From an uncultured Holophagales bacterium (GTDB taxonomy: Bacteria > Acidobacteriota > Thermoanaerobaculia > Multivoradales > UBA5704), in NCBI GenBank assembly GCA_963842525.1, contig CAWJGT010000001.1, positions 32,001 through 96,000 of the forward strand: a DNA stretch of 64,000 bases, written 5' to 3'. The notes under the pieces were generated by a model. It was given only the letters and a program-made list of their open reading frames with translations. It had not been told where the DNA came from and did not search any database. Of this stretch, positions 42,116 through 49,720 are shown in pieces; the first letter of the stretch is position 1; every line of letters starts with the position of its first letter. The translations under genes were made by a program, and so were the position numbers.

Positions 42116-44530
42116 ATGGGACTTCTTCGCGACCTCCGCCATGCCGTCCGGACGCTGACTGGCCATCCCGGCTACACCGCGGCTGCGGTGCTCACTCTGG
42201 CGCTGGGGATCGGGGCCAACACGGCGATCTTCAGCGTCGTCGATGCGGTGCTGCTGCGCCCGCTGCCCTTCCCGGAGCCGGACCGGCTGGTCGACGTGCT
42301 GGCCGTCCGGTCGGGACCGGAGACGGACCGGGTAGCGATCAGCCCGGCGGACTTCCTTGCCTGGCGTGCCCAGGGGCGGGTGTTCCAGGACCTCGGCGCC
42401 TATGTCCCCTTCGGCAGGCTCGACTGGACGGGCGGCCCGGAGCCGGTGCGGCTGTCGCGGCATCTGGTGTCCGAGGGGCTGCTCGCCGCGCTGGGGGTGC
42501 GGCCGGCGCACGGCCGGCTGTTCGCCGCGGAGGAATACCAGGAAGGCGCCCGCCGTGTGGCTTTGCTCAGCGACCGGCTGTGGCGGACCCGGCTCGGGGC
42601 TGATCCGGCAGCGGTCGGCCGCAGCCTGACCCTGGGCGGTGAGGTCTACGTGGTCGTCGGCGTCCTGCCGCGCGATTTCCGTATCCGCGGCGGCGAGCCG
42701 GACCTCCTGCTGCCGCTCGCCTTCGGGCCGGCGGCGGCGGCCGACCGTGAGTCCTCCTATCTCGGCGCGATCGGCCGGCTGCGTCCGGGGGTGTCGCTGG
42801 AGCAGGCACGCCTCGCGATGGGCAAGGACTTCAAGGACGGCAAGGACACCAACGATCAGACGATGACGGCCAGCCTGGTGCCTCTGCATGAGGTGATGGC
42901 TGGGCCGGCCCGGACAGCTCTCTTCGTGCTCTTTGGCGCCGTGGTCTTCGTGCTGCTGATTGCCTGCGCCAATGTGTCCGGCCTGCAGCTCGTGCGCGCT
43001 GCGTCGCGCCAGCCGGAGATCGTGCTGCGCTCGGCGCTCGGCGCGGACCGGAGACGCCTGGCGCGGCAGCTCCTGGTGGAGAGCGGCGTCCTGGCCGTCC
43101 TCGGCGGACTGGGCGGCGTGCTCCTTGCGGTCCTGGCTCTCCGGCTGTTGCCCGACGCGCGGGGCGTCTACCTTCCGCGGGACGTGGAGCTGGGCGTCGA
43201 CCTGCGGGTGCTCGGTTTCACCTTGATCCTGACGCTGCTCGCCGGGCTGGTCTCCGGGCTCGCACCGGCCCTGCGCGGCTCGCGGGCCGACCTGCGCGCG
43301 GCGTTCCAGGCCGGGGCCGCGGGGTCGCAGGAAGGCGGCACGTCGCGCCTCCAGGACAGCTTCGTCGTGGCCGAGATCGCCCTGGCCCTGGTGCTGCTCT
43401 GCGGCGCCGGCCTGATGCTCCGGTCCTTCGTGCGCCTGCTGGGCGAAGACCCCGGCTTCGAGCCGCGGCACGTGCTGACGATGGAGATCGAGGTGCCGGC
43501 GGCGCGGTACCCTGAGGCCGCCCAGGCCGCGGCGTTCTACGCCGGGCTGCTCGACCGCCTCGGGCACCTGCCCGGCGTGACGGCTGCCGGTGCCGCGAAG
43601 GAGCTGCCTCCCGACACGCCCTGGGGCTTCCGCCCCGTGCTGGAGGGCCGGGAAGAGCCGGAAGAACCCCAGGAGTCACTCGCGGGCTGGCAGCTCGTCA
43701 CGCCGGGCTATTTCGCAGCCATGGGCACCCCCGTGCTGCGCGGCCAGGCCTTCACCCTGAGCGACCGGGAAGGGAGCCGGCCGGTGACGGTGATCAACGA
43801 GAGTGCCGCCCGCCGCTTCTTCCCGGAGGTCGACCCTGTCGGCCGGCGGGTGCGGTTCAATGACATCTGGCACGAGGTGGCCGGTGTGGTGCGGGACCAG
43901 AAGACCCCGGGCGAAGCGGCTGGCGGCTCGCCGGTCTTCTACTTCGCCCATGCGCAGCTCCCGGTGCCGTCCGATTTCCTGCGTACCATGGCCATCGCGG
44001 TGCGCACGGAGAAGGACCCGCTCGCCCTCGCCGCCGCGGTGCGCCGCACGCTCTGGTCGCTCGACGCGGACCTGCCGGCGGCGGAGCTCCAGCCGCTGGA
44101 GCAGCGCCTCGTCGGCGGGCTCTTCTTCGCCCGCTCCCACTTCAACACCGTGCTCCTGGTGCTCTTCGCCGGCCTCGCTCTGCTCCTGGCGATGATCGGG
44201 ATCGCCGGCCTCCTCTCCTACCGGGTGCGCCGCCGCACCCGCGAGCTCGGCATCCGGATGGCGCTCGGTGCGCAGCGGGCCGACCTCCTGCGGCTGGTGA
44301 TGGCGCACGGCCTCGCCCTGACTCTCGTCGGGCTCGTCCTCGGCCTCGCCGGCGCCGTCTCCCTGACCCGCGTCCTGGCGAGCCTCCTCTATGGCCTGGG
44401 CGCTCTCGATCCGCTCACCCTCGGCGCGGTCGTCCTCCTCCTCGCCGCGTCCGCCTCCCTCGCCTGCTATCTCCCCGCCCGCCGCGCCAGCCGTCTCGAG
44501 CCCGTGACGGCGCTGCACGCCGACGTCTAG
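42116..44530 (+). CDS. ADOP-type duplicated MacB/FtsX ABC permease
   Basis: [48 protein letters not shown]; no adjacent ATPase. Confidence 0.93.
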
Positions 44531-44537
44531 CGCCTTC

Positions 44538-44810
44538 AGCGCCGTGGTGCGGGTCGTGGGCGCCGCGGTGGCCCGCCCCCATACCGTGGTATGGGCCGCT
44601 CACACCGGGGGATGAGCAGCTCATACCGCGGTATGGTATCGCCATACTGGGGTATAGTTGATCCAAACCGCGGTATGAAGATCACATACCCGGGTATGTC
44701 GAGATTGAACCTTGGAACGTTTGCTTCATACCGCGGTATGGTTGACTCGCACCACGGTATGGTGACAACATACCGTAGTTTGGCTGACTCATACCGAGGT
44801 GCGTGTGGCT
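44538..44810. repeat. 21-bp-period array of palindrome CATACCGCGGTATG plus 7-nt variable spacers (array C)
   Basis: 13 units starting at 44538+21n; exact palindrome at 44622 and 44727, near-exact at 44580, 44664, 44685, 44748; spacers differ (ggccgct, agcagct, gtatcgc, gttgatc, aagatca, tcgagat...). Confidence 0.95.
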
Positions 44811-44857
44811 CGTACTTTCACCCGGACGAGCCGTTCTGGCCTTGAGGGGAGGAGAGA

Positions 44858-45253
44858 ATGCCGATTCCGACTGCATACCCCGACATCTTTCAGGACTGGA
44901 GCCTACTGCTCGCCGCGGTGCGGAAGAACCTGGAAGCCTTGCCGGGGATCGAGCCGCTGTTTCGCGAGATGGAGAGGGTCGCAGCCGAGGCCAAGTCGCT
45001 CAAGGGGGATCAGGACGAGCTCCAGGCGCGCCGGCAGAAGGCGACGCAGGACCTCAAGGAGAAGATCCGGGAAGGGCGCGATCTGGCGATCGTCCTGCGT
45101 GGGATCGTCCGCTCGCGGCTCGGACCCCGCAACGAGAGGCTGGTGCAGTTCGGGATCGCACCCATCCGGAAGCGCGGGCCCCGCTCGCGCGGGAAGGCCG
45201 CCGGGAACAGCGATGCCTCGCAGCCGGCGAACGAGGAGCCGCAGGCCGAGTGA
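44858..45253 (+). CDS. small helical/coiled-coil hypothetical protein with basic tail
   Basis: GGAGGAG RBS; amphipathic helices, GPRNERLVQFGIAP, then RKRGPRSRGK. Confidence 0.8.
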   Translation: MPIPTAYPDIFQDWSLLLAAVRKNLEALPGIEPLFREMERVAAEAKSLKGDQDELQARRQKATQDLKEKIREGRDLAIVLRGIVRSRLGPRNERLVQFGIAPIRKRGPRSRGKAAGNSDASQPANEEPQAE

Positions 45254-45299
45254 GGGTCGAGGCGGCAAGGAAAGCCCTCTCCCCCTGGCCCCATACGCG

Positions 45300-46244
45300 C
45301 TAGCTTTGCGCCGGAGGTCGGGTCGTGCGAAGCGCCTGGTAGAGGCCTTCGAAGAGGGCGGTCCCGTGGCGCTCCAGCTCGGCGTCGGGCCAGCCGGCCG
45401 CGGCCCAGCCGCGCAGGACGGCGTCGATGCCTGCGGCCTCGGGGGAGGCCGGGCCGTCCCGCAGGTCGATCTCGTGGACGACGGCGGCGAGGGCCCGGAG
45501 GGCAGGCTCGTCGAGGCGGAAAGCCGCGAGCAGGGTCTCGAAGGTGCAAAGGTTGCCGCTGTGGCCGAACTCGGCCTCCCGCATGTCGAACGAGACCTCT
45601 CCCGCGGCGGGCTCGTCGGCGTAGCGGACCACGGCCTCCGTATCGATGAAGCGGCGGATCAGCCAGATCGAAGCCAGACGGTCGACGTGCGGGCGCGGCC
45701 GGGTCGCCCAGGTCCGGCCGCGGTAGCGCGCGAGGTCGGCCTGCGGCACCTCGCGAGGGGCGGCCTCCTCGCCGGCGATCGCCTCCGCGAGCCGGTTCAG
45801 GGCCGCGGCAGCTTCTGTGCCCTCCGGTGCCTGGAAGAAGTCGATGCGCGCCACCTCGGCCTGGCGGCGGCGCAGGCGTTCCAGCCGATCGCGGAATCCG
45901 GCGCGGTCGTCGTTCGCTGCGCGGGCGCTGCCGGCCGCTTCATCGGCCTCGGCGGCGATCTTCCGGTAGTCCTCGTCACGGGCGGCGCGGGAGAGCTCGA
46001 TCACCCGCGCCTCGGCCTTGTCCTCCAGCCGCTCGGCATGGAGCACCAGCGCCTCGCCGCCCCCGTCGCGGATCTCCTGCGCCAGCCAGTCGAAGGCCTC
46101 CCTGCTCTCGGCGCCGTCCGGCAGCAGGTAGAGCGAGCCGGTGGGCGAGACTGCTCCGAGCTGGCGCAGCCGCCGCCACACCGCCACGCGCTTGCTGGAC
46201 GAGGCGGGGGAGGGGAGGGAGTAGGCGAGGCCGACCCAGCGCAT
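45300..46244 (-). CDS. chrB: chromate resistance protein ChrB-like
   Basis: RVAVWRRLRQLGA N-domain; WATRPRPHVDRLASIWLIRRFID, FDM..AEFGH.GNLCTFE. Confidence 0.9.
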   Translation of the reverse strand: MRWVGLAYSLPSPASSSKRVAVWRRLRQLGAVSPTGSLYLLPDGAESREAFDWLAQEIRDGGGEALVLHAERLEDKAEARVIELSRAARDEDYRKIAAEADEAAGSARAANDDRAGFRDRLERLRRRQAEVARIDFFQAPEGTEAAAALNRLAEAIAGEEAAPREVPQADLARYRGRTWATRPRPHVDRLASIWLIRRFIDTEAVVRYADEPAAGEVSFDMREAEFGHSGNLCTFETLLAAFRLDEPALRALAAVVHEIDLRDGPASPEAAGIDAVLRGWAAAGWPDAELERHGTALFEGLYQALRTTRPPAQS

Positions 46245-46297
46245 GGGGGGAATCCTACCGACCTCACCCCCTGGCCCGCTCGGCCCTCTCTCCCTGC

Positions 46298-47259
46298 CTA
46301 AGACCCCGACCCCGATCCCACCACCCTAAGCGCCGTGGGCGGGCAGAGCGCCTTCGGCGTGTCCGTGGTGAAATTGACACGGCCCGGTGGGGGAGGGACG
46401 ACCTCGAAGAGGAACGGCCTGATGCCCTGCTCGCGGTCGAAACCCTTCACCAGATCATAGAAGACCTCGAAGTCGGCGACCGGCTGGTCGAGCTCATCGG
46501 GCTCTGGCGGCTCGGGGAGCCCGATGTGCTCGAACTCGCGGCTCATGAGCCTCACACGGACTTCGCTCGTCCCATCCGGAGGAGCGAGGAACAGCGTCTG
46601 GGCCGGCTTCCCCTCCTTCTTCATGGAGAGTGCCACGTGTATCGGCACGTTCTCGATGAGGAGCTGCCAGGCTGGCTGCCACTCTCCGGTCCAGGGGGTT
46701 CTGGTCGAGGGGCTCGATCCGGCAGGAATTTTCGCTCAGCGCGTGCGTCGCGAGCGTGCCCCGTTCGAGCTTCACCTGCGTGATGATCCGCCCCTTCCGG
46801 TTCAGGGGGGCCGCGTCGAGGCCGGGCTCGAGGGCTCCGTTGCCGGGGGAGGCCTGTTCCATGGTGACGAGCCAGAACAGAGACCTCTTTCGCCGGGTGT
46901 CGGGTTGTCGACATCGTTTGGCACGCCGGTGAGCAGCTTGAAATCGGAGTGAGCCCGGGAAGAGGCAGGATCTCGATCTTTTCGGTCTCGAGATGGCAGA
47001 TCCCCCGGCCGTCGTTGGTCGAGAGATCTACCGGGCGCGTGCTGGAGGCCTGCCGGTTTTGCAGGTCGAAGTCCAGGATGGGGAAGTGCGGGTCAAGGAT
47101 CTCCTGCTGACCGTTACGCCGGTTGTTCAGCGGGCGCGGCTTGAGCAGGTTGGGCACCAGGATGGTCACGGAGTCGGCGGATTCGAGGCTCGTGTCAAAG
47201 GTCCGGTCTGGAATGACGGCCATCAGGCCGGAGAGGATCATCCGGAAGGTGAAGGGCAT
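46298..47259 (-). CDS. hypothetical protein downstream of the CHAT gene (frameshifted)
   Basis: AGGAG RBS; pieces in three ORF-track frames (46621-47259, 46494-46862, 46298-46648) join into about 310 aa. Confidence 0.6.
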
Positions 47260-48063: not shown

Positions 48064-49720
48064 GTATCTGTTTACCGTCAGCGGCACTTTTGGGGAAGGT
48101 TTTCCCTGGACACACGTCCGCGCTGGCCAGGCGACCTGACGAGGGCGAGCGGCTACCGACCTGGAGCCACGGATAACTCGTGGCGAGAACTGTTACGGTG
48201 GCTGTGACGCAGGAAGTATTGCCTCAAGCTTCGGTAGCTGGGGGCTGCGCAGAAGCTGGGGCAAGATCTCGAGTGTCCCGACTTGGTGTTGCTGAAATGT
48301 GCGCAGGGCACTCATCAAGACCGCTTGCGCCTGGGACCCCTCGGCCGTCCGATTTCCCCCAGATGTCTTGCGGTTGATGACCGCCGGGCGAATCCCTTGT
48401 TCGGCCGGCCAATTGGTCGCCTCCACATCCGTGCGTTCCAGGAAGACAAACAGCTGCTCCTGGTGACGTATCAAATGCTGAGCCAGACGCTGGTTGTCGG
48501 GGTTCGTGAACTGCCCCGACAGACGCCTTTCCATCTGGAGCTCCAAGTTCTGCTTGACCTTCTCCAGCGCCTCGCCGCTGAGCTTGCCCGCGTCCCGCTG
48601 ATCTCGCGCCTCCAAGGCGGCCTGCAGGATCTCTTTCACCGCCCGAGGAAAGCGCACCGCACCCCCTGTCGCCTTCTCCAGCAGCTCCTCGCAACGGCGC
48701 AACAGATGCGCCAGACAGGTCTGATGAGTCGCTTCTTCAAATTTCTGATAGGGAGCCCAACCATCAGCCACCAGCACGCCGACAAAGCCCTCCCCCAGGA
48801 CCTCAGAGGCCTCGGCATAGCCACGACCCGGCTGGATGCTGTAGACCGTCTCGCTGCGATTGGTGAACACCCACAACCACACGCTATAGCCCCCCTCCCG
48901 CCAGCCCGTCTCGTCCGGGTACACCACAGGAGAGGCTCCGGATCTTCGCCTTCAGCTCCTCGTACAAGGGCTCCAGCTTCTTACTCATGCGAAGCAGCGC
49001 GCGGCACAGGGCCGAGCGCGACACAGACAGTCCAGCCACTCCTTCAGCAACGCGGCGATCTTGCCGTAGCTCAAGCCTCCGACCTTGTTGAGCCAGGCGG
49101 CGAGCCCCAACACGTTTGGACCGAGTTGCACGTTGCCGACCCGGAACGCCTGGGAAGTCTGGCGCGGGTGACGCCCCACAGCTTCCCGGCCACATGCCGA
49201 GCACTTCCCATAATGGAGGATGAACTCCGTCGTCACCGGCCGAATCGGCGGCAGATCGGTCTGATACTGGCGAGCTTCGCCCTGCGGAATGACCTGACCC
49301 CCACAGTGCTCACAATACAGCGGGCACTCCACCACGATGGTTTCGTCGACGTGATCGGGCACAGCTCGAGTCGCTTGCTGACCATATTGATCCCCGGCTT
49401 TGCGCCCTGGAGACTTGGGATCCTCGCTCGGATCTCCCTTCGAGAAGGGGGCAGCCTGGCGTTTGCCCCGGCGCCGTAGCTCCTCGACAAGTTTCTCCAG
49501 ATCGACGATTCGGCGCTTCAGGTGCGCAATCTGGCGCTCCTGCTCCTCCACCCGCTGGCGAAGCTCACCGTTGTCTTGGCGAAGCTCAGAGTTCTCTTGA
49601 AGGAGTTCCTCGTAAGTCGGCATGCCTGAAAGACATTAGACCATGCCGAGAAGAGAACTTCAAGCCCTTGCGGACGTGCCACCGCTCGGGGAAGGCGGCA
49701 CTAGGGCGGTAAACAGATAC
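48064..49720 (-). mobile_element. IS66-family (ISBst12-type) element, full length
   Basis: TIR GTATCTGTTTACCG at both ends; 8-bp TSD GTCCGGAA (48056-48063, 49721-49728). Confidence 0.95.
48193..49623 (-). CDS. IS66-family transposase (frameshifts near 48935 and 49038)
   Basis: Leucine zipper, CxxC zinc finger, DETGW, QTCLAHLLR, TNWPAEQGIR. Confidence 0.88.

Follow-up and report, generated by a model that had tools for sequence, protein, structure and literature searches.

In a 64,000-nucleotide stretch of DNA from an uncultured Holophagales bacterium (GCA_963842525.1, contig CAWJGT010000001.1, positions 32,001 to 96,000; hereafter the window, whose numbering we use for all focal coordinates), we analyzed a row of 14-bp palindromes with a 21-bp period that lies directly upstream of a gene for a 131-amino-acid protein. 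Our results point to this array as a duplex-DNA platform that would be coated by members of the protein family encoded beside it, a reading to which we assign a probability of roughly 40%. As judged from sequence, the gene and the array together form a recurrent module that is real and old, and the 131-amino-acid protein would be by far the best candidate for the factor that binds the array. This kind of system appears to be new. In agreement with the initial annotation of this DNA, which had called the module apparently undescribed, we found no named family for the protein and, in literature whose coverage left subscription journals outside, no description of such arrays or of the 131-amino-acid family.

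The array had been described as 13 in-register units, each a 14-bp palindrome plus a 7-nucleotide spacer, ending 47 bp before the gene. This layout was confirmed, with an exact 21-bp period and a total of 11 units in the array body, or 13 to 14 when decayed edges are included. A pattern search of the 64-kb window for the consensus CATACCGCGGTATG found 11 matches at up to 3 mismatches, compared with a mean of 1.68 and a maximum of 5 in shuffled sequence (0 of 100 dinucleotide shuffles reached 11). Ten of the 11 matches keep an exact 21-bp register, at 44580 + 21k with k = 0 to 5 and 7 to 10 (44580 to 44803), and a degenerate unit with 7 mismatches to the consensus lies inside the array at 44706. 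The edge units at 44538, 44559, and 44811 have decayed to 7, 7, and 9 mismatches, respectively, and are still in register. At up to 1 mismatch, all four matches to CATACCGCGGTATG in the 9.95-Mb assembly fall inside the focal array, with none elsewhere. The tract occupies the space between the stop codon of a MacB_PCD/FtsX permease gene (42116 to 44530), 8 bp past which the decayed edge units start, and the 131-codon open reading frame (ORF), and its features are as follows.

44538..44579, no strand assigned: decayed upstream edge of the array, two in-register units with 7 mismatches each, in which the central CCGYGG and the 21-bp register are kept.
44580..44810, no strand assigned: array body, made up of 11 units (21 bp) in which a 14-bp palindrome (consensus CATACCGCGGTATG) is followed by a variable spacer of 7 nucleotides.
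44811..44857, plus strand: 47-bp linker from array to gene, which contains one final decayed unit and, at 44846 to 44854, a ribosome site of the GGAGG type (Shine-Dalgarno-like GGGGAGGAG), upstream of the ATG at 44858.
44858..45253, plus strand: gene of an unnamed family, 131 amino acids, with a GC content at third codon positions (GC3) of 0.88; the product has an N-terminal helix, a 57-residue helix, a conserved motif, and a disordered basic tail.

The 14-bp cores of the focal units have a mean pairwise identity of 0.72 and the 7-nucleotide spacers one of 0.30, with 0.25 expected by chance from composition. A faint likeness nevertheless persists among the spacers (GTTGACT, GCTGACT, and GTTGATC), which indicates that the units arose by duplication and that the cores were then kept. 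Because the spacers differ, Tandem Repeats Finder detected the tract only in part, as just two partial rows of 2.6 to 2.7 copies. The GC content is 0.52 to 0.55 within the array, compared to 0.70 to 0.76 in its flanks.

The downstream gene had been taken for an orphan, a claim that is refuted by its many relatives. When the focal protein was used as a tblastn query against its own genome, 35 places were recovered at E ≤ 1.8e-4, itself included, and 42 at E up to 10, while an iterated profile search of six-frame ORFs found 44 related ORFs, among which two pairs are each the pieces of one broken gene. In public data comprising 1.84 billion representatives, a 32-member profile matched 1463 clusters at E ≤ 0.001 and 965 at E ≤ 1e-10, mostly of 115 to 160 amino acids. 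Of the other genomes from the same taxonomic family, 22 of 24 encode members, at 3 to 45 matches each, and there were no matches in 16 genomes that represent eleven further families of the order; further homologue records come from Acidobacteria, Thermoanaerobaculia, and Holophagales metagenome-assembled genomes (MAGs). Family members had no meaningful match in Pfam, NCBIfam, PHROGs, or PADLOC (32 members were compared with Pfam and NCBIfam; for PADLOC, none matched at E < 0.002), and tblastn of a plasmid collection (72,556 plasmid records) and of phage collections found no match to the family. Ten longer homologues had no Pfam domain, and one longer protein of 388 amino acids was likewise without a recorded Pfam domain.

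The hallmarks of the family are a length of about 120 to 140 amino acids, a DW near the N terminus, 75 residues from W14 to G89, and, after the long helix, the nearly invariant motif LGPRNERLVQFGxAPxRKR, which is followed in the family alignment (A1) by a basic, proline-rich tail. The focal protein, which is the first row of this alignment and scored E = 8e-43 in the profile search, has all of these hallmarks; its motif reads LGPRNERLVQFGIAPxRKR, and its basic tail turns acidic at the end. The distance from W14 to G89 is exactly 75 residues, without insertions or deletions, in nearly all of the 35 paralogues, though identity falls to 15 to 40%. Such a fixed length is a notable and unusually strict constraint for a helical protein.

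The gene family and the arrays are linked well beyond chance. Within this genome, an array with a period of 19 to 21 or 40 to 42 bp is found no more than 600 bp from 30 of the 44 family ORFs, compared with a mean of 2.3 and a maximum of 8 under random placement (200 trials). The family is also the sole strongly enriched neighbor of the arrays, with 15 of its 26 called members beside one, and the next best family reaches 7 of 64. In 25 cases the array is downstream of the family gene; the focal locus is among the 5 with an upstream array, so that the array directly upstream of its gene, as first described, is correct for the focal locus and does not extend to most paralogues. The pairing recurs in other genera: 10 of 19 homologous loci in relatives have arrays in their flanks (1.5 kb), and 7 of 13 loci from other MAGs and metagenomes have them upstream of the gene. 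In unbiased 400-kb samples, the family matches with an array within 600 bp numbered 2 of 3 in genome G010, 2 of 3 in G020, and 0 of 2 in G011. A general lack of arrays beside homologues, which the initial annotation had named as grounds for refuting the module, was thus not observed. Each homologue array has its own dyad core and shares the 21-bp period, as in CTGGA-N5-TCCAG at locus L045 and CCGGCCGYGGCCGG at L024.

We also found that the build of the arrays follows the protein tree of this genome's members. The focal clade has upstream 21-bp arrays, and the next clades have downstream arrays of 21, 20, and 19 bp in turn. By Fitch counts, array side needs 1 change, compared to a mean of 4.7 in shuffles (as low in 1 of 2000), and array spacing needs 3 changes, compared to a mean of 10.3 (as low in 0 of 2000), while protein identity inside a trait group goes down to 15 to 34%. 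Since kin share labels by descent, the fit to the tree shows long co-inheritance of gene, side, and period and does not by itself show co-adaptation. Side and period follow the tree, while the cores change. Sequence comparison indicates that gene, array side, and period have long been co-inherited through turnover of the cores.

The focal array is one of many in the genome. Sliding autocorrelation found 650 periodic stretches, and 312 of these, or 93 kb of the 9.95 Mb, have a period of 19 to 21 or 40 to 42 bp (157 at 21, 88 at 42, 24 at 41, 25 at 20, 14 at 19, and 4 at 40), with at most 57 stretches at any other period. A stricter motif-based pass identified 186 arrays with at least 5 units and a consistent 19- to 21-bp spacing, and in an all-period motif pass, the modal spacing was 19 to 21 bp or its double in 176 of 204 well-formed arrays. 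The count of strict dyad arrays over the whole genome was 110, plus 18 at doubled spacing. The cores vary among arrays (GGATAAGCTTATCC, TTCTGAGGTACCTCAGAA, CGGACGGTCCG, GCAAGCTTC, and others); clustering at up to 1 mismatch sorts the 151 intergenic arrays into 66 core classes, of which 40 are singletons and 26 multi-array, and 116 of the intergenic arrays have at least 4 dyad arm pairs. The GC content of the arrays is 0.616, compared to 0.662 in other intergenic DNA. With 35 further arrays that overlap called genes set aside, 49 arrays lie between convergent, 81 between tandem, and 19 between divergent genes, against a background of 621, 1515, and 643, respectively; arrays favor gene ends. In the GGATAAGCTTATCC arrays of the 19-bp class (e.g., G000:C1:699788-700272, G000 being this genome), the outermost arm R...Y pairs are Watson-Crick in 0.385 of units, with 0.514 expected, and multi-unit higher-order repeats recur. 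This anti-correlation of the arms, together with the higher-order repeats, suggests that these arrays grow by duplicating blocks of several units.

Array density tracks family copy number in seven genomes, for which we compared 400-kb samples with the family matches per genome. A strict motif-based count was used for this comparison because raw autocorrelation is swamped by codon periodicity in 72%-GC genomes. There were 12 strict dyad arrays per 400 kb in G010 (45 family matches), 9 in G020 (30 matches), 4 to 8 in G000 (32 matches), 4 in G024 (13 matches), 2 in G011 (4 matches), and 0 in both G023, of the same taxonomic family, and G031, of another family, each of which had 0 family matches.

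The initial annotation had pictured a well-formed gene whose product has amphipathic helices and a basic tail, and both the coding GC3 and an AlphaFold2 model agree. In the model (32-row alignment; mean pLDDT of 90), helices at residues 7 to 23, 32 to 88, and 93 to 98 are followed by a disordered tail. A two-copy homodimer model scored 0.66, compared with 0.00 for the best of 3 controls; the runs share at least 98% of contacts, and the partner pLDDT is at least 87. Among proteins of solved structure, the mark set for this score is passed by 20 of 30 that form pairs of one chain and by 1 of 23 that are single chains, counts that apply roughly here because a custom alignment was used. The homodimer contacts (residue 45 with 70, 48 with 66, and 77 with 17) imply an antiparallel rod with one conserved basic head per end. 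The 131-amino-acid protein is predicted to form an antiparallel coiled-coil dimer, and this dimer model fits a reader of dyad sites. By standard helix values, 57 residues span about 85 Å and 21 bp about 71 Å, so that one dimer could reach the next palindrome, and each palindrome could receive heads from two neighboring dimers. Fold and profile searches of the PDB gave generic helical matches only, a weak likeness to small terminases (E of 0.07 to 0.12) not being significant.

We propose that the tract would serve as a duplex-DNA platform, that is, a series of dyad-symmetric candidate sites two helical turns apart which are kept as sequence and not as a foldable hairpin. The gene 47 bp downstream would encode the likeliest binder, a predicted rod-shaped antiparallel coiled-coil dimer that carries the invariant basic motif and a basic tail at each end. 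Dimers lying side by side along the array would contact every palindrome from both sides and would turn the array into a continuous protein-DNA filament. In the focal subfamily, in which the array immediately precedes the region of the gene's promoter, such a coat would also set the expression of its own gene. The focal locus is one of about 30 gene-plus-array modules amid 150 to 300 arrays of the same build and different sequence. Candidates for their cellular role are structuring of the chromosome, a barrier at the ends of genes, and titration.

Several observations weigh against this proposal. Fourteen of the 44 family ORFs have no array within 600 bp, and arrays exceed genes by about 4 or 5 to 1: a family gene lies within 600 bp of only 25 of the 151 intergenic arrays, and a family-adjacent array occurs in 8 of the 26 multi-array classes and 7 of the 40 singletons, with none in the other 18 multi-array classes. 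The pairing is recurrent, but with 186 arrays in the genome and so few of the intergenic ones near a family gene, the array type is, contrary to the initial annotation, not dedicated to this gene. The basic motif is nearly invariant among paralogues whose array cores are unrelated and so does not account for sequence reading. A simple model in which the length of the rod sets the period is not supported, since members of the 19-, 20-, and 21-bp clades all have 75 residues from W14 to G89. No recognizable DNA-binding fold was found; Foldseek gave nothing at E ≤ 0.001, and the best VIA-align Z score of 7.0 was to generic helical hairpins. The seven genomes on which the co-occurrence rests are few and related. 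Finally, a sigma-70-like promoter and an intrinsic terminator had no match anywhere in 44200 to 45500, so that read-through from the permease gene could put the focal array in a transcript.

The constancy of the basic motif and the 18 multi-array classes without an adjacent family gene would both be compatible with duplex-DNA arrays that are bound by some other factor, such as a helix-turn-helix (HTH) regulator, in which case the 131-amino-acid protein would be either a target of the regulation or an accessory without a part of its own in reading the DNA. Two other kinds of protein are encoded beside arrays, namely zinc-finger/HTH plus TPR regulators (16 near raw arrays and the 7 of 64 near strict arrays given above) and a second small coiled-coil family found 0 to 27 bp from 20-bp arrays. 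We consider this explanation unlikely: enrichment near arrays is weaker outside the 131-amino-acid family, array period and side track the tree of that family, and no arrays were found in the samples of the two genomes that lack it. The regulator-like proteins that adjoin arrays in G000 are about 410 to 540 amino acids long and combine TPR-like repeats with an N-terminal part that resembles an HTH or a zinc finger (e.g., C9:847888-849270, C11:116431-117894, C19:66916-68535, and C9:238300-239646), and for those near strict arrays, the array is always downstream. The members of the second unnamed family are about 170 to 210 amino acids long, with a coiled-coil N-terminal half and no Pfam match, and start just after arrays of 20-bp ATAAGCTTATCCACCGCGAC units; three of about 10 members are array adjacent (G000:C1:320847-321849, C9:107972-108962, and C9:476702-477340).

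The bias of the arrays toward convergent and tandem intergenic regions would be expected if they were self-propagating or neutral satellites at gene 3' ends, akin to repetitive extragenic palindromes (REPs) and bacterial interspersed mosaic elements (BIMEs), with the small gene traveling along in the module and having no binding function. The quick turnover of cores and the broken genes in some module copies would fit this view, as would the modules of the 19-bp class, whose DNA is 70 to 90% identical over gene plus array (0.8 to 1.3 kb) and which thus duplicate as units. These modules are without a transposase, however, and Y1 (PF01797, RAYT-type) genes are not enriched near the arrays, with 5 of 20 within 3 kb compared to 3.3 (sd 1.6) at random (P = 0.22) and no enrichment genome-wide. 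The focal cores have been kept while their spacers are near chance identity, and period and side have been retained through the divergence of the proteins. On balance, we find a satellite without a binding partner improbable. One Y1 fragment (G000:C7:144751-144873) is found at a distance of 240 bp from the 19-bp array that accompanies the family member at C7:143647-144045.

The array could also act as RNA, with small hairpins strung along a leader or 3' untranslated region, and would then serve as a stability element, a protein sponge, or a repeat RNA like a type III antitoxin on which the adjacent protein acts. Compared with shuffled sequence, either strand of the focal tract gives a much better fold (z scores of -7.1 and -7.9), most arrays lie just after a gene and so are probably in or near its transcript, no promoter match separates the focal array from the permease gene or from the downstream gene, and the basic tail of the protein would suit an RNA ligand. 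Equal folding of the two strands follows from tandem palindromes and does not discriminate, though, and the best fold of the focal tract pairs different units together and does not form a row of unit hairpins. An Rfam scan of 43500 to 46500 returned chance-level microRNA and small RNA rows only (E ≥ 0.08).

The arms of the palindromes show no sign of being kept as pairs. In 6051 arm-pair cells from 116 arrays, we counted 4579 Watson-Crick pairs, compared to 4614 (sd 15) when the right arms were shuffled within arrays, and 61 compensatory arm pairs, compared to 80 (sd 7) in the shuffles. Arm mismatches were G:T in 375 cases and A:C in 413, and the corresponding numbers for sense-oriented arrays between co-directional genes were 182 and 203. 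In the best-sampled class, with 260 GGATAAGCTTATCC units, the mutual information of symmetric positions was 0.00 to 0.07. The absence of covariation and the similar numbers of G:T and A:C mismatches indicate that the arms are kept as sequence and not as pairs, with no strand preferred. In addition, at 4 of 4 homologous loci scanned (L009, L002, L041, and L036), one 10-of-12 match to TTGACA-17/18-TAnnnT lies between array and gene on the gene's strand, whereas shuffles give 0.0 to 0.2; by eye, the same placement is seen at L016, L040, and L044. A promoter at this position places the homologue arrays upstream of the promoter and not in the leader. The initial annotation had left the choice between a DNA platform and a structured RNA leader; the missing covariation and the promoter placement favor duplex-DNA sites, and we think a role as RNA quite improbable.

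There is almost no chance that the tract encodes an SYRGM heptad-repeat protein (44591 to 44845) or the product of a minus-strand ORF, because, although an 84-codon ORF is open through the array with YRGM-like repeats on both strands, its GC content at the three codon positions is 0.48/0.55/0.60 and the GC3 of two minus-strand ORFs is 0.55 to 0.60, compared to a GC3 of 0.91 in the permease gene, 0.88 in the 131-amino-acid gene, and 0.87 on average in called genes, because the array ORF has no match in Pfam, and because sister arrays with 19- and 20-bp periods are unreadable as codons. By its composition, the focal tract is not a gene, in line with the nucleic-acid-level role proposed for it at the outset.

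A broader version of the DNA-platform reading is possible, if doubtful. Thermoanaerobaculia-type Acidobacteria may have a genome-wide system without a described counterpart, with hundreds of arrays of palindromes phased at two turns and tens of rod-shaped dimeric paralogues, each specific for its own adjacent array class. These proteins would polymerize on the arrays and thereby insulate or mark the ends of genes or bring together loci that lie far apart. Their rapid co-evolution with the arrays would recall that of eukaryotic satellites and centromere proteins. If this is true, the lineage devotes about 1% of its DNA, plus 30 to 45 paralogous genes, to protein-coated repeat platforms that are absent from textbooks, and the arrays would represent a new class of chromosome-organizing or gene-end-marking system, a natural collection of orthogonal protein-DNA pairs that come with a built-in ruler, and a bacterial case of satellite-like DNA that co-evolves fast with its binding protein. 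As the modules are self-contained and shorter than 1 kb, they are simple material for testing. The minimum gain is a new annotation: the family, which comprises at least 1463 clusters and has a strict genomic partner, is absent from Pfam, NCBIfam, PHROGs, and PADLOC.

By Pfam, the genes that flank the focal tract and its gene encode the MacB/FtsX permease and ChrB. In five same-genus genomes, the permease and ChrB homologues are on different contigs, with no gene of the 131-amino-acid family beside them. In one same-genus genome, a strong array with a 42-bp period (L034 2364-2783, G001:C88; lag identity of 0.77) abuts the 5' side of a ChrB homologue, whereas the focal module is at the 3' side of ChrB in the window. 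A second array in the window, at 2193 to 2403, has a 21-bp spacing with a 42-bp higher order, in which GTCCCCGCGGGAC-like and CCGCGGCGG cores alternate, and no gene of the 131-amino-acid family is nearby. An 85-codon ORF on the minus strand at 49233 to 49490 (G000:C1:81233-81490) occurs at no fewer than 16 genomic places, with six compared copies identical, and probably belongs to a mobile repeat such as an insertion sequence; next to it, at 49461 to 49627, is a weak stretch with a 21-bp period.

We compared the module with seven known kinds of system (type II partition, iteron origins, CRISPR, REP/BIME, type III toxin-antitoxin, H-NS-like proteins, and PARCELs), and membership in each fails on at least one hallmark. 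Like a CRISPR array, the focal array alternates a partly palindromic repeat with spacers of fixed length. CRISPR repeats are 23 to 47 bp with spacers of similar size, according to PMC1933234, and the initial view that the focal units are too short for CRISPR stands, as its repeat is 14 bp and its spacer 7 nucleotides. The focal spacers are, moreover, decayed copies of one another, and no cas genes are adjacent, the flanks being the permease and ChrB genes (the wider window was not scanned for cas families).

Palindromic coding repeats, or PARCELs, are a known phenomenon, with a repeat unit of 25 residues that is amphipathic and lies in an expressed ORF (PMC2996958). The focal unit corresponds to 7 codons, and its ORF is without coding composition. 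A nearer likeness is to REPs and BIMEs, which are also short extragenic palindromes, often clustered or in tandem and mostly located after genes; according to PMC3733652, REPs are 20 to 40 bp long, carry GTAG or CGTC tags, fall into one or a few families per genome, and are linked to a Y1 transposase. The arrays described here differ in having a 14-bp core without a GTAG or CGTC tag, 66 core classes, a fixed period of 19 to 21 bp, and a different partner gene.

Among systems with a small protein and a repeat or filament, type III toxin-antitoxin loci such as ToxIN have repeats of about 36 nucleotides that act as RNA and a toxin that is an endoribonuclease of the ToxN/AbiQ fold. The focal locus resembles them in having a tandem repeat array directly upstream of a small protein gene and differs in its helical-hairpin model, in the lack of a ToxN/AbiQ match in PADLOC and Pfam, and in the absence of RNA-type covariation. 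H-NS, Lsr2, and MvaT are small proteins that combine coiled-coil oligomerization with a basic C-terminal DNA-binding part and form filaments on DNA. The dimer model and the basic tail of the 131-amino-acid protein would suit such a build if it binds DNA, and the arrays are somewhat poorer in GC than other intergenic DNA, but proteins of the H-NS types have no cognate repeat arrays and are encoded by one or a few genes per genome, in contrast to the 30 to 45 found here, and 0 of 32 family members match Histone_HNS, Lsr2, or MvaT at E ≤ 0.01.

Iterons are direct repeats of 17 to 22 bp beside a rep gene, with one origin per replicon, that are accompanied by DnaA boxes and an AT-rich region and are read by winged-helix Rep proteins. 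The omega protein reads arrays of heptads on pSM19035. Both share with the focal module a set of phased short repeats beside the gene of a small protein, whose binding is here predicted, and in all of them the number and phase of repeats would matter more than the sequence of spacers; unlike iterons, the units are palindromic, the genome has 186 arrays, and the protein is a predicted coiled coil. In ParR-parC type II plasmid partition, 20-bp tandem repeats (pSK41) next to a promoter are coated into a filament by a small dimeric protein encoded by the adjacent gene. The focal locus likewise has tandem repeats of about two helical turns that adjoin the gene of a small, predicted dimeric candidate binder near what would be its promoter. 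Its AlphaFold2 model is all helical, with no N-terminal strand and no ribbon-helix-helix fold, its neighbors are the MacB/FtsX permease and ChrB genes with no gene for an actin-like (ParM) or ParA ATPase nearby, no other protein family is enriched beside the family genes or the arrays, and the modules are chromosomal, in dozens per genome with more than 150 arrays and none in the 72,556 plasmid records. ParR-parC, iteron-Rep, and omega-heptad arrays are the closest known systems in mechanism, and each departs from the module described here in fold, partner genes, or copy number.

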